Source: a virus (Duplodnaviria > Heunggongvirae > Uroviricota > Caudoviricetes). From it: a stretch of 5,154 bases of DNA. The notes under the pieces are model-generated. The model saw only the letters and a program-made list of their open reading frames with translations, did no database searches and had not been told where the DNA came from. The position numbers were made by a program, and so were the translations under genes. This document shows, piece by piece, positions 1-5,154 of this stretch; the first letter of the stretch is position 1; every line of letters starts with the position of its first letter. Where the stretch lies: the IMG/VR virus record IMGVR_UViG_2606217117_000011; one strand, 5' to 3'.

Positions 1-812
1 TCAGACGAACCGATGACTGGATGGATGGCCGCCGCAGTCGTCACACTGATGATACGGATGTGCTTCTCCGTATACACCATGTTATCGGAGAGCTGCCCAC
101 GTATGGTTATCGTCGGGTATGGGCGCTGCTTCGCAGACAGGCAGAACTTGATGGTATGCCTGCGATCAATGCCAAACGTGTTTACCGGATCATGCGCCAG
201 AATGCGCTGTTGCTTGAGCGAAAACCTGCTGTACCGCCATCGAAACGGGCACATACAGGCAGAGTGGCTGTGAAAGAAAGTAATCAGCGATGGTGCTCTG
301 ACGGGTTCGAGTTCCGCTGTGATAACGGAGAAAAACTGCGAGTCACGTTCGCGCTGGACTGCTGTGACCGTGAGGCACTGCACTGGGCGGTCACTACGGG
401 CGGCTTCAACAGTGAAACAGTACAGGACGTCATGCTGGGAGCGGTGGAACGCCGCTTCGGCAACGAGCTTCCGGCGTCTCCAGTAGAGTGGCTGACGGAT
501 AATGGTTCATGCTACCGGGCTAATGAAACACGGCAGTTTGCCCGGATGTTGGGGCTTGAACCGAAGAGCACGGCGGTGCGGAGTCCGGAGAGTAACGGCA
601 TAGCAGAGAGCTTCGTGAAAACGATAAAGCGTGACTACATCAGTGTCATGCCCAAACCAGACGGGTTAACGGCAGCAAAGAACCTTGCAGAGGCGTTCGA
701 GCATTATAACGAATGGCATCCGCATAGTGCACTGGGTTATCGCTCGCCACGGGAATATCTACGGCAGCAAGCCAGTAATGGGTTAAGTGATAACAGGTGT
801 CTGGAAATATAG
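1..812 (+). CDS. insD: IS2 transposase InsD (OrfB), 5'-truncated by the window edge; stop TAG at 810-812
   Basis: ORF-track protein 21..812 ([40 protein letters not shown]...[16 protein letters not shown]...[31 protein letters not shown]) matches my recollection of IS2 InsD over its whole length. The frame stays open upstream to base 3, so the true start is outside the window. Confidence 0.93.
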
Positions 813-823
813 GGGCAAATCCA
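783..823 (+). repeat. IS2 right terminal inverted repeat (approximate extent)
   Basis: Terminal sequence GGGTTAAGTGATAACAGGTGTCTGGAAATATAGGGGCAAATCCA ends the element. The exact inner boundary of the IR is from memory of IS2 (~41 bp), not computed. Confidence 0.65.
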
Positions 824-1213
824 TCCATTGAGCATTGCCGCAATTTCTTTTGTGGTGATGTCTTCAAGTGGAGCATCAGGCAGACCCCTCCTTATTGCTT
901 TAATTTTGCTCATGTAATTTATGAGTGTCTTCTGCTTGATTCCTCTGCTGGCCAGGATTTTTTCGTAGCGATCAAGCCATGAATGTAATGTAACGGAATT
1001 ATCACTGTTGATTCTCGCTGTCAGAGGCTTGTGTTTGTGTCCTGAAAATAACTCAATGTTGGCCTGTATAGCTTCAGTGATTGCGATTCGCCTGTCTCGG
1101 CCTAATCCAAACTCTTTACCCGTCCTTGGGTCCCTGTAGCAGTAATATCCATTGTTTCTTATATAAAGGTTAGGGGGTAAATCCCGGCGCTCATGACTTC
1201 GCCTTCTTCCCAT
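824..1213 (-). pseudogene. int: Lambda-type tyrosine integrase Int, N-terminal 130 codons only, truncated by the IS2 insertion
   Basis: Minus-strand ORF 737..1213 begins MGRRRSHERRDLPPNLYIRNNGYYCYRDPRTGKEFGLGRDRRIAITEAIQANIELFSGHKHKPLTARINSDNSVTLHSWLDRYEKILASRGIKQKTLINYMSKIKAIRRGLPDAPLEDITTKEIAAMLNG, matching lambda Int residues 1-130 as I recall them. After residue 130 the frame runs into IS2 terminal sequence ([11 protein letters not shown]...), so the catalytic C-terminal domain is absent on this side of IS2. Confidence 0.9.
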
Positions 1214-1409
1214 TTCTGATCCTCTTCAAAAGGCTACCTGTTACTGGTCGATTTAAGTCAACCTTTACCGCTGATTCGTGGAACAGATATTCTCTTCCAT
1301 CCTTAACCGGAGGAGGGAATATCCTGCATTCGCGCACCCATCGACGAACTGTTTCAAGGCTTCTTGGGCGTCGCTGGCGAGCGTTCCACTCCTGAAGTGT
1401 CAAGTACAT
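1191..1409 (-). CDS. xis: Excisionase Xis (72 aa), lambda-type; overlaps the int start by 23 nt as in lambda
   Basis: Protein MYLTLQEWNARQRRPRSLETVRRWVRECRIFPPPVKDGREYLFHESAVKVDLNRPVTGSLLKRIRNGKKAKS matches lambda Xis from memory. GGAG lies about 9 nt upstream of the ATG on the minus strand. Confidence 0.93.
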   Translation of the reverse strand: MYLTLQEWNARQRRPRSLETVRRWVRECRIFPPPVKDGREYLFHESAVKVDLNRPVTGSLLKRIRNGKKAKS

Positions 1410-1435
1410 CGCAAAGTCTCCGCAATTACACGCAA
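1395..1435 (-). promoter_or_regulatory. Putative pI-type CII-activated promoter (TTGC-N6-TTGC motif at 1422-1435, minus strand) overlapping the xis start
   Basis: Minus strand reads TTGCGTGTAATTGCGGAGACTTTGCGATGTACTTGACAC. TTGC-N6-TTGC is the CII recognition pattern of lambda pRE/pI/paQ promoters, and the position just upstream of and overlapping the xis ATG corresponds to lambda pI. The -10 element and transcription start were not mapped. Confidence 0.45.
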
Positions 1436-1460
1436 GAAAAAACCGCCATCAGGCGGCTTG
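1436..1460 (-). terminator. Candidate intrinsic terminator on the minus strand (stem CCGCC / loop UGAU / GGCGG, then UUUUUU) overlapping the stop of the 55-aa ORF
   Basis: Minus strand reads AAGCCGCCTGATGGCGGTTTTTTCTTGCG: a short GC-rich hairpin followed by a 6-T run. The stem is only 5-7 bp, so the call is weak. Confidence 0.4.
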
Positions 1461-1616
1461 GTGTTCTTTCAGTTCTTCAATTCGAATATTGGTTACGTCT
1501 GCATGCGCTATCTGCGCCCATATCATCCAGTGGTTATAGCAGTCGTTGATGTTCTCTGCTTCGATAACCCTGTTGAATGGCTCTCCATTCCATTCACCTG
1601 TGACTCGGAAGTGCAT
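1449..1616 (-). CDS. Small hypothetical protein, 55 aa (position and size equivalent to the small ORF between xis and ea8.5 in lambda)
   Basis: Not in the ORF track (below its length cut-off). Hand translation of the minus strand from ATG at 1616-1614 to TGA at 1451-1449 gives MHFRVTGEWNGEPFNRVIEAENINDCYNHWMIWAQIAHADVTNIRIEELKEHQAA. GGAG lies 7 nt upstream of the ATG. The spacing relative to xis and ea8.5 matches my recollection of the lambda map. Confidence 0.6.
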   Translation of the reverse strand: MHFRVTGEWNGEPFNRVIEAENINDCYNHWMIWAQIAHADVTNIRIEELKEHQAA

Positions 1617-1704
1617 TTATCATCTCCAAAAAACAAACCCCGCCGTAGCGAGTTCAGATAAAATAAATCCCCGCGAGTGCGAGGATTGTTATGTAATATT
1701 GGGT

Positions 1705-1986
1705 TTAATCATCTATATGTTTTGTACAGAGAGGGCAAGTATCGTTTCCACCGTACTCGTGATAATAATTTTGCACGGTATCAGTCATTTCTCGCACATT
1801 GCAGAATGGGGATTTGTCTTCATTAGACTTATAAACCTTCATGGAATATTTGTATGCCGACTCTATATCTATACCTTCATCTACATAAACACCTTCGTGA
1901 TGTCTGCATGGAGACAAGACACCGGATCTGCACAACATTGATAACGCCCAATCTTTTTGCTCAGACTCTAACTCATTGATACTCAT
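1705..1986 (-). CDS. ea8.5: Ea8.5 protein (93 aa), lambda b2-region gene of unknown function
   Basis: Protein MSINELESEQKDWALSMLCRSGVLSPCRHHEGVYVDEGIDIESAYKYSMKVYKSNEDKSPFCNVREMTDTVQNYYHEYGGNDTCPLCTKHIDD matches lambda Ea8.5 as I recall it. Strong RBS AAGGAG lies 6 nt upstream of the ATG on the minus strand (1993-1998). Confidence 0.88.
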   Translation of the reverse strand: MSINELESEQKDWALSMLCRSGVLSPCRHHEGVYVDEGIDIESAYKYSMKVYKSNEDKSPFCNVREMTDTVQNYYHEYGGNDTCPLCTKHIDD

Positions 1987-2037
1987 TTATAAACTCCTTG
2001 CAATGTATGTCGTTTCAGCTAAACGGTATCAGCAATG

Positions 2038-2062
2038 TGAACCGCCCCGGGTTTCCTGGAGA
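2038..2062 (-). repeat. Terminal inverted repeat of the IS3-family element (orfB-distal end)
   Basis: TGAACCGCCCCGGGTTTCCTGGAGA at 2038-2062, 18 bp beyond the orfB stop (2080-2082). The extent is approximate and cannot be confirmed against the left IR, which is outside the window. Confidence 0.6.
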
Positions 2063-2079
2063 GTATTTTATCTGTGAAC

Positions 2080-2600
<521 letters not shown>

Positions 2601-2603
2601 CCC

Positions 2604-2637
2604 GAACCGGACGTGCACCTTTCAGCGCATCCGGCTC
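2604..2637 (-). ncRNA. Group II intron domain V (catalytic hairpin)
   Basis: Minus strand GAGCCGGAUGCGCUGAAAGGUGCACGUCCGGUUC is 34 nt with the AGC triad, a GAAA-type loop and a 2-nt bulge, closely matching the domain V consensus GAGCCGUAUGCGAUGAAAGUCGCACGUACGGUUC. It starts 5 nt after the IEP stop codon. Confidence 0.88.
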
Positions 2638-2642
2638 TCCAT

Positions 2643-4166
2643 TTAAATGCTGGCGAACGCCATTGCCACTTCTGTAAAGCGCGATGTATACGTGTTTCTG
2701 GTCTCCGTCCTCAGATAGGGATTACCTTCGGGTAGCCGCCAGCGGAACAGCTTCTTGCCTTGCCCCACCAACCGGTACAGTATTTCGCCGCTGAGCTTGC
2801 CGTGATTGGTTTTACCAAATAAAACCCACGTTTTGCTCTGACCCGGTTTCGGTGATTTACACCACCACCTCATCAGGGAAGCGATACCTGTACGGTATTT
2901 GCGGGCCAGCCAGTGAGCCAGCTTCCAGAACACGACACGGTCGATATAACTGAAGACTTTGGCCTTAAAATCAACGAACTGATAGAACATGGCCCAGCCT
3001 TTCAGTTTTCGGTTGAGTTGTTCAGCCATATCGACTTTGCTTTCACTGTAGTTGCCTGATAACAGTGCTGTCAGCGATGCGGCGAAGTTTCTGGCTTTCT
3101 CCTGCGGGATCGTTGAGACCACTCGCATCTCGCCATAACGACTGCGTTTGCGAATGATCCTGTGCCCCAGAAAGATAAAGCCGTCATTAACATGGGTGAT
3201 TTTAGTCTTATCCATGTTCAGCCTGAGTTTCAGACTGCCTTCGAGCACACCCCGACACTCCTCCCTGATGGCTTCCGCCTGTGCTTTGGTGCCTTTGACG
3301 ATGAGGACAAAATCATCGGCATAGCGGCAGTACGCCACCGCGGGTTTCCACTGCCAGTTTTCTCTGACCGCCGTACTTCGGCCCCGTTGGATACTGTTAT
3401 TCCAGTACCACCGATCTTTTCTGGCTTTCCCGCTCAGGTAGCGCTCATGCAGGTATTGATCGAACTCATTCAGCATGATGTTCGATAATAGCGGCGATAT
3501 AACACCGCCCTGTGGCACACCTTCACTGGCCGCCCGAAAGAGACCGACATCGATATGTCCCGCCTTGATGGTTTTCCACAGCAGAGTCATGAAACGTGCG
3601 TCACTGATCCTGCGGCGTACAGCCTTCATCAGCAGTCGATGATGTACGGTGTCGAAGTAACTGGACAGGTCGCCTTCAATCACCCAGCGTCCCCGGGTTT
3701 CACCACAGTCTGTGAGCTGTAATTTCACCGTGCGGATCGCGTGGTGGACACTGCGCTCAGGCCGGAAGCCATATGAGAGCGTATGAAAATCACTCTCCCA
3801 TATCGGCTCCATCGCCATCAGCATGGCCCGCTGAACAATACGATCCCGCAACGCGGGGATACCCAGTGGTCGCAGTTTGCCGTTGCTTTTAGGGATGTAA
3901 ACCCGTCTGGCGGGCAAGGGCTGGTAGTGGCCTGAGAGTAATTCATCCCTGAGGATTTGCAGCTCAACAGCCAGTCTGGCCTGTAGCATTGTTTTGTTCA
4001 CGCCATCAACGCCGGGGGTATGGGCCCCCTTTGATGAAAGCGTGATCCGCGCCGCTTCAGCCAGCCATTCTGGTTGTGTTATCAGACGCAGCAGCCGTTG
4101 AATCCGTAGGGACGGATCGGTGACTGCCCATGTGGCAAGCTTGCGTTGCATTTCGCTGATTATCAA
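2643..4166 (-). CDS. Group II intron-encoded protein: reverse transcriptase/maturase (507 aa from TTG at 4166, or 502 aa from the first ATG at 4151)
   Basis: RT motifs are visible in the translation: KLRPLGIPALRDRIVQ (RT1), SYGFRPERSVHHA (RT2), GVPQGGVISPLLSNIMLNEFD (RT4), YCRYADDFVLIV (RT5 with YADD), LNMDKTKITH and GFIFLGHRI (RT6/7), followed by a maturase-like region (RNFAASLTALL...KLKGWAMFY). No Cys/His-rich HNH endonuclease block is seen at the C-terminus. Confidence 0.93.
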   Translation of the reverse strand: MIISEMQRKLATWAVTDPSLRIQRLLRLITQPEWLAEAARITLSSKGAHTPGVDGVNKTMLQARLAVELQILRDELLSGHYQPLPARRVYIPKSNGKLRPLGIPALRDRIVQRAMLMAMEPIWESDFHTLSYGFRPERSVHHAIRTVKLQLTDCGETRGRWVIEGDLSSYFDTVHHRLLMKAVRRRISDARFMTLLWKTIKAGHIDVGLFRAASEGVPQGGVISPLLSNIMLNEFDQYLHERYLSGKARKDRWYWNNSIQRGRSTAVRENWQWKPAVAYCRYADDFVLIVKGTKAQAEAIREECRGVLEGSLKLRLNMDKTKITHVNDGFIFLGHRIIRKRSRYGEMRVVSTIPQEKARNFAASLTALLSGNYSESKVDMAEQLNRKLKGWAMFYQFVDFKAKVFSYIDRVVFWKLAHWLARKYRTGIASLMRWWCKSPKPGQSKTWVLFGKTNHGKLSGEILYRLVGQGKKLFRWRLPEGNPYLRTETRNTYTSRFTEVAMAFASI

Positions 4167-4822
4167 AGGTCTTCACCTCGTTAGGTCAGTTAATTCACGT
4201 CGCAAACACATTCAAACTGCTTCCCTTCGCCATGTAATGGGCTTTCCCCATCGCGGACTACTACGGAAGCTCCGCCAGCCAGCGCGTCATCGGAGCCATG
4301 CCCCCTTAACATCCGTCGCTGACCTTCCCCGGTTTACCTGCCTGGACTCAGGCATACTGAGGAGGCTGCCCGTCGCACTCTTTATCCTTGCTTGCCGCAA
4401 GTTGGCAGAAGTCAGCAACGCAAGCGTGATAGACGCTGCTGCCCCGGTGTTTCGCATACATGTCAAAACACCTTCGACCGGCAGTGCTTACGTATCACTG
4501 CCAGTTCCTCCTGCACGGCCTGTCAGATCACGTAGGCCGTGGTGACGTTTTCAACCCACAGAGGCGGATTAACGGGTTCATGTTCTTCAGCCTTTCAGTA
4601 CTTAACCTTGAGGATCATCTCGGCTTAGTGATCTCGCCTCAATCCCCGTTGTCAGCGGGTTACATCACCCTGCGGGCATGCCGCAGGTCACTGCCGCTCA
4701 GGTTCTCCACCGTCACACCCGGTGGGATTGTTGGGTTTCTCATCGTGAGTTACCGGCTCAATATTCCAGACAGACTCGCGGTTCATTTAAGCATCCATGC
4801 CCGCCCTGAACTCCGGGCACAC
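4167..4822 (-). ncRNA. Group II intron 5' ribozyme portion (domains I-III and the 5' part of domain IV)
   Basis: Lies between the intron 5' end (GUGUG, 4818-4822 on minus) and the IEP start. Contains the EBS1-bearing hairpin CAGUG-AUACGUAAG-CACUG. The plus-strand ORFs in this interval (4120..4545, 4460..4831) have no recognisable protein features. Confidence 0.6.
4487..4492 (-). other. Putative EBS1 (5'-CGUAAG-3') in a hairpin loop of intron domain I
   Basis: Perfect Watson-Crick complement to the last 6 nt of the 5' exon (IBS1 5'-CUUACG-3', window 4823-4828 on minus). About 330 nt from the intron 5' end, flanked by the 5-bp stem CAGUG/CACUG. Confidence 0.55.
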
Positions 4823-5154
4823 CGTAAGTAAAATCAGCCACCCACAGCTGGTCAGGTCGTTCTGCCACGAACTGACGGTTTACGCGGTCGCCTGCGGCAA
4901 CGGCTTTCCGGCTGATGGTCGTACGGACCTTTTTACCCCGGAGAACACCGGCAAGTCCCATAACCGCCATGAGACGTGCCACAGTGCATCTGGCCACTCT
5001 GATACCTTCCCGTAACAACTGACGCCAGACTTTACGCACACCGTATACCTTGTGATTTTCATCGTATACGCGCTGTATCTCTTTCTTCAGCCAGTCATCG
5101 CGCTGCGCACGGGCACTGCGTTTATCCGGATGATGTCGCTGTTGCTGACAGTGG
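4823..5154 (-). CDS. IS3-family transposase OrfB, 5' exon portion (N-terminal/middle region; continues beyond the window end)
   Basis: Minus-strand frame is open from the window edge: HCQQQRHHPDKRSARAQRDDWLKKEIQRVYDENHKVYGVRKVWRQLLREGIRVARCTVARLMAVMGLAGVLRGKKVRTTISRKAVAAGDRVNRQFVAERPDQLWVADFTY, then the intron. The ORF track shows only the part from an internal GTG (4758..5039) and reads through into the intron. Confidence 0.85.

Follow-up and report, generated by a model that had tools for sequence, protein, structure and literature searches.

The stretch of DNA analysed here (5,154 bp; hereafter the window) is pieced together from four mobile elements. Positions 1-823 (plus strand) are the 3′ part of the insertion sequence IS2 (IS2 positions 509-1331), and the interval from 2038 to the right edge is occupied by an IS629/IS1203-type element that is interrupted by a group II intron. 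Window positions 823-2038 correspond to lambda 28492-29707 with 17 mismatches (98.6% identity), and no lambda homology was found in the window outside this interval. The visible prophage is thus a 1,216-bp lambda island carrying a truncated integrase gene (int′), xis, orf55 and ea8.5, with insertion elements on both sides.

Aligned to IS2A, the annotated K-12 copy (1331 bp), the IS2 part covers positions 509-1331 without gaps and at 96.96% identity, which is above the 95% nucleotide identity to the reference by which an IS2 isoform is recognised. The last 12 nt of IS2A are found at window positions 812-823, and the right terminus (IRR), ending in …GGGGCAAATCCA, has its final IS2 base at position 823. 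This terminus is independently delimited by an IS2 copy of E. coli FDAARGOS_1249, which is 100% identical to that of the window and has the 5-bp duplication CAACC on either side. The variant is a widespread isoform: 890 records carry it at 99% identity or more, and numerous unrelated genomes and plasmids contain it at 100% identity. A frame at 21-812 (plus strand), which is open from the start of the window and has its listed ATG internally, encodes the C-terminal part of the OrfB transposase; the HTH_21, rve and rve_3 domains detected in it by Pfam identify the product as the DDE (rve) transposase OrfB of IS2, a member of the IS3 family.

Lambda homology begins at window 823/824 (lambda 28492), and the exact junction reads …GGGGCAAATCCA/TCCATTGAGC (here and below, a slash marks the join), with one base (A) common to IS2 and lambda. 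On the minus strand, positions 1213-824 encode codons 1-130 of a lambda-type integrase, whose 130 residues, the last of them being AAMLNG, are all identical to lambda Int 1-130. The frame then reads through into the IS2 right end for 28 IS2-derived codons and stops at 737 (737-823, minus strand), which gives an ORF of 158 aa at 737-1213. The preliminary description had placed the end of IS2 at 823 and the cut in int after codon 130, and the alignments to IS2A and to lambda Int (130/130) proved both positions exact to the nucleotide. The IS2 orfB and int′ genes are convergent and overlap by 76 nt, so any transcript reading out of IS2 would run antisense to int′ and xis. A promoter scan of the junction region found no outward consensus promoter there, and the promoter, terminator and repeat scans of the same region returned only known lambda terminator-like hairpins.

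The domain content of the 158-aa product was then compared with that of the full-length enzyme. Pfam assigned residues 1-69 to the arm-binding domain (PF09003, Arm-DNA-bind_1; E = 2e-33), and residues 81-129 gave a partial, sub-threshold match to a SAM-like domain in the core-binding region. Matches to the PDB structures 1z1b, 1kjk and 2oxo end at about residue 133, and 1kjk spans residues 1-64 of the arm-binding domain, which folds alone. In full lambda Int the catalytic domain (PF00589) lies at 179-345; in the Pfam search this domain, which holds the active-site tyrosine, was found neither in the 158-aa product nor elsewhere in the window. Of the domains of Int, the int′ gene retains the arm-binding one and roughly half of the core-binding one, and what the window holds is an integrase gene fragment, not a functional member of the family. 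Because every catalytic residue is missing, the int′ product is incapable of strand exchange, so that this copy yields no active recombinase able to cut or rejoin att sites. The proposal that this copy of int is inactivated is thus upheld, with an authentic IS2 terminus at codon 130/131 and PF00589 absent from the frame, and the fragment should be labelled a pseudogene.

The neighbouring xis gene (1191-1409, minus strand, 72 aa) is complete. Its product shares 71 of 72 residues with lambda Xis, contains the Exc domain PF07825 over its full length (residues 1-72; E = 3.9e-41), and matches the excisionases of the closest prophages, those of E. coli MMC-J-0105 and FDAARGOS_1249, at every residue. 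Window positions 1381-1505 show zero differences from lambda; they span the pI start region, the -10 region and the motif TTGC-N6-TTGC at 1422-1435 (minus strand), which was read directly from the sequence, is identical to lambda, and in lambda is the cII-binding box of pI. At the sequence level, therefore, the earlier statement that xis and pI are intact was confirmed. Further to the right are lambda orf55 (the lambdap35 homologue; 1449-1616, minus strand), which was assigned from the lambda annotation and is one residue off lambda, and ea8.5 (1705-1986, minus strand; PF20735, E = 1.1e-48), whose product is identical to lambda Ea8.5. The exact orf55 protein is very common (8,139 blocks) and normally adjoins an intact int of 356 aa.

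An intact xis ORF, however, is not the same as an expressible one. In lambda, the leftward pL transcript is the sole source of Xis, because pI initiates inside xis; pI also needs cII. At this locus the insertion sequence and the intron cut xis off from that transcript, which would have to cross about 3.6 kb of them before reaching the gene. We therefore consider xis best annotated as probably unexpressed.

The right side had been treated in the preliminary description as intact prophage, but this view was not sustained: lambda DNA stops at 2038, which is 51 bp upstream of the start codon of ea8.5, and there meets the intron-bearing IS629-type element. The junction reads CAGCAATG/TGAACCGCCCCGGG and represents the right terminus (IRR) of that element, while lambda itself continues from 29708 onwards as TTTATGTAAAG. 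The 3′ part of the element, including IRR, lies at 2038-2552 (minus strand), contains rve domains and is 98.9% identical to the intron-less copy of MMC-J-0105. Its upstream exon part (4823-5154, minus strand) runs past the window edge and is 100% identical to positions 9678-10009 of the MMC-J-0105 locus. Between the two parts is a group II intron of 2270 nt (2553-4822, minus strand), the ends of which, GUGUG ... UAC, were set by alignment to the uninterrupted insertion sequence and agree with the GUGYG...AY pattern. The intron is matched by Rfam RF00029 at 2553-2639 (64.9 bits; gathering score 40), is oriented in the sense direction within the IS629/IS1203-type transposase gene, and carries ltrA (~2643-4151, minus strand), a reverse transcriptase and maturase ORF with RVT_1 and GIIM domains.

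This IS-intron unit is present at 99.8% identity in many E. coli chromosomes and plasmids, as annotated ltrA-bearing IS copies. In E. coli WP9-S17-ESBL-11 (locus L003, 5584-6197) and about 10 similar genomes, the intron-bearing IS629-type element directly abuts a truncated IS2 whose cut matches window ~195, and the resulting IS-in-IS nest lies in an island near cobU. Nests of this type indicate that the IS629-type element and IS2 repeatedly end up adjacent to each other.

Comparison with relatives placed the lambda island in a lambda-like prophage lineage. The 1,216-bp segment shares 99.84% identity with phage PhiR11_1 and with the prophages of FDAARGOS_1249 and MMC-J-0105, all three of which have an intact int (356 aa), whereas the int of the window is cut. 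The prophage of the closest relatives is located at the classical attB beside ybhC. Among the sampled contexts of the same orf55, int was intact (354-357 aa) in 10 of 10, mostly beside ybhC. Given the intact gene in both sets, the truncation is the derived state. Over the 1,216 bp only two differences from the nearest prophages were found, at 1629 (A) and 1638 (C), both of them intergenic, and the fragment and its nearest relatives have identical coding sequences. The two substitutions are in the orf55-ea8.5 spacer, beside a terminator-like hairpin. A pattern scan of genome contigs (GTDB species representatives) gave no match to the two private SNPs together, and a BLAST search of this region against 5,426 complete E. 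coli genomes gave 98.6% identity at best, with no genome sharing the SNPs.

The IS2-int junction was likewise not found by megablast in the 5,426 complete E. coli genomes. The sole match with 80% coverage of the junction, in E. coli SCU-105, was rejected, as it has a different insertion point. Exact-pattern scans for the junction gave 0 matches in GTDB species representatives, JGI metagenomes and IMG/VR, the PLSDB plasmids contained no match crossing it, and the 158-aa fusion ORF had no exact match in the gene index. For the ea8.5-IS629 junction, 0 matches were obtained in the scan of viral contigs (IMG/VR). This particular allele thus appears to be unique among the sequences searched, yet it is of a known kind. 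The junction and the two private SNPs could serve as lineage markers.

Several relatives carry insertion elements close to the right border of the island. In FDAARGOS_1249 (locus L002, 9249), an inverted IS2 with the duplication CAACC is found 34 bp to the right of the IS629 site of the window. In MMC-J-0105 (locus L001, 9215), an IS629 end (IRL) is located at lambda 29707, the same nucleotide as the IRR of the window and in the opposite orientation, and a deletion extends from this IS629 end, on the ea8.5 side, to gene O. In PSS-12, an IS1203 lies about 194 bp further right in the ea8.5-ea22 spacer. Judged from these genomes, insertion elements seem to have landed repeatedly in the ea8.5-ea22 spacer.

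A question raised by these findings is how the junction between IS2 and int came about. Since its position coincides with the very last nucleotide of a 1331-bp element, it is not a chance feature; it is a transposition signature rather than a product of chance or of assembly. If the 823/824 join were a chimera produced by mis-joining at a repeat, int would be intact in the real genome, and it is true that IS2 is a multicopy repeat and that the junction occurs in no other sequence searched. Such an error, however, would have had to break IS2 on its exact last nucleotide, for which a random breakpoint has a chance of about 1 in 1331, and the one ambiguous base shared by the two sides offers no repeat or microhomology to mislead an assembler. 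The other two mobile-element junctions of the window are equally precise, the IS629-type terminus being authentic and the intron lying at its exact site. We hence regard a chimera as highly improbable.

The best overall explanation, to which we assign a probability of roughly 85%, is that IS2 transposition truncated int, and that the locus is now an IS-bounded remnant which would no longer be excised by its own Int and which decays neutrally. According to this explanation, transposition joined the right end of IS2 to a lambda-type int between codons 130 and 131, in a lambda-like prophage lineage whose closest relatives occupy the classical attB next to ybhC; on its right side the lambda island ends at an IS629/IS1203-type element that was later invaded by an E.c.I4-like group II intron; and the region would be decaying neutrally.

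Given that the junction is real, a simple IS2 insertion is the event that we think probable. The int 3′ half and attL would then lie just beyond the left end of IS2, with TCCAT as the 5-bp duplication; IS2 positions 1-508 and the DNA to their left fall beyond the window edge. The sequence expected some 508 bp upstream of the window would be ...GTCTATGTATCCAT/TAGACTGGCCCCC, and at the left end of IS2 one would expect ...GCCTTTCCCTCGTCTATGTATCCAT/TAGACTGGCCCCC, with int codons 131-356 on the minus strand. The preliminary description had stated that an IS2 insertion inactivates int. The presence of an IS2 terminus in int stands, but the insertion had been assumed, and a deletion or inversion leaves the same junction.

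The junction may accordingly also be the scar of an IS2-mediated rearrangement, that is, of an adjacent deletion, an inversion or a recombination between two IS2 copies, an origin that we consider possible though clearly the less likely of the two. In favour of such an origin, insertion elements bound the lambda fragment on both sides; the 100%-identical inverted IS2 of FDAARGOS_1249, 34 bp beyond the IS629 site, would by inversion, or by a local hop followed by recombination between the inverted copies, give exactly an IRR joined to int; and the same prophage lineage has undergone a large IS629-associated deletion in MMC-J-0105. However, the IS2 variant is 100% identical in very many genomes, which makes its identity with the FDAARGOS_1249 copy weak evidence, and the content of the window is equally compatible with a simple insertion. 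Simple insertion is, moreover, what SCU-105 shows, and it is the default product of IS3-family transposition. As a diagnostic of a local hop or inversion, the identity of the FDAARGOS_1249 copy was rejected, the variant being found at 100% in many unrelated genomes and plasmids. If a rearrangement did take place, the int 3′ half and attL would be deleted or elsewhere, and the 1.2-kb lambda piece would be an orphan with no prophage attached.

A different reading is that the truncated Int, with its arm-binding domain, and Xis have been kept as a working module that might bind the P-arm sites of lambda-type att sites, whether incoming or resident, and so disturb their integration or excision. The arm-binding domain is complete and able to fold independently, xis and pI show no change, and the coding sequences of the fragment equal those of the nearest relatives, all of which would suit such a role. 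The locus is nevertheless a single instance that does not recur in any collection, and thus shows nothing that would point to selection; the core-binding domain is broken off mid-fold and followed by a nonsense tail; and with two intergenic differences only, the event is too recent to test constraint. In addition, pI needs cII, and the insertion sequence and intron stand between pL and xis. We therefore think a working module very unlikely. Equally unlikely is the wider proposal that the whole island is a retained module. Should the source genome still have the FDAARGOS-type IS2, inverted IS2 copies would flank the island on both sides, and its Int arm-binding fragment and Xis could then interfere with att recombination of lambda-specificity phages; alternatively, the island could be an invertible or mobilisable segment bounded by IS2.

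Returning to IS2 transposition into int as the preferred explanation, its main consequence concerns excision. The preliminary description had proposed a fixed or cryptic prophage without Int-dependent excision; the missing catalytic domain of int′ bears this out in part, but the loss of excision itself is what we infer from it. A prophage relying on the int′ copy would not be expected to excise by its own Int, though an additional Int of lambda specificity, encoded at another place in the genome, could act in trans. The region is more aptly labelled an IS-bounded lambda remnant than a prophage merely without Int. It also illustrates how prophages become domesticated and decay by a well-documented route, the nesting of mobile elements: IS2 lies in int, an IS629-type element by ea8.5, and a group II intron inside the latter. 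Every component belongs to a well-described family. Insertion-element disruption of prophage int genes is well documented and is a textbook step in prophage decay; the finding is for this reason ordinary and carries little weight beyond annotation.

The individual parts of the locus have counterparts in known systems. The group II intron E.c.I4 homes into IS3-family transposase genes (PMC3522654), and, like the intron of the window, it has an RT/maturase ORF and sits in sense orientation at a defined site of an IS629-type transposase gene, the likeness being one of behaviour; the intron adjoins the int truncation described here but forms no part of it. A direct precedent for the int truncation exists in E. 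coli SCU-105 (locus L004), where the same int gene is interrupted, some 110 bp deeper into its sequence, by a simple insertion of an IS3-family element 97% identical to the IS of the window. In SCU-105 both halves of int are present at ybhC, and, as in the window, an arm-domain fragment is kept beside an intact xis. For the predicted failure to excise, a parallel is provided by the lambdoid prophages Sp3, Sp11 and Sp12 of E. coli O157 Sakai, in which int is disrupted and which were predicted to be non-excisable, circular forms not being detected (PMC2669165); our inference agrees with these observations. In contrast to the Sakai prophages, the gene disrupted here is an int of true lambda specificity, with IS2 at codon 130/131, and 1.2 kb of lambda DNA is visible.
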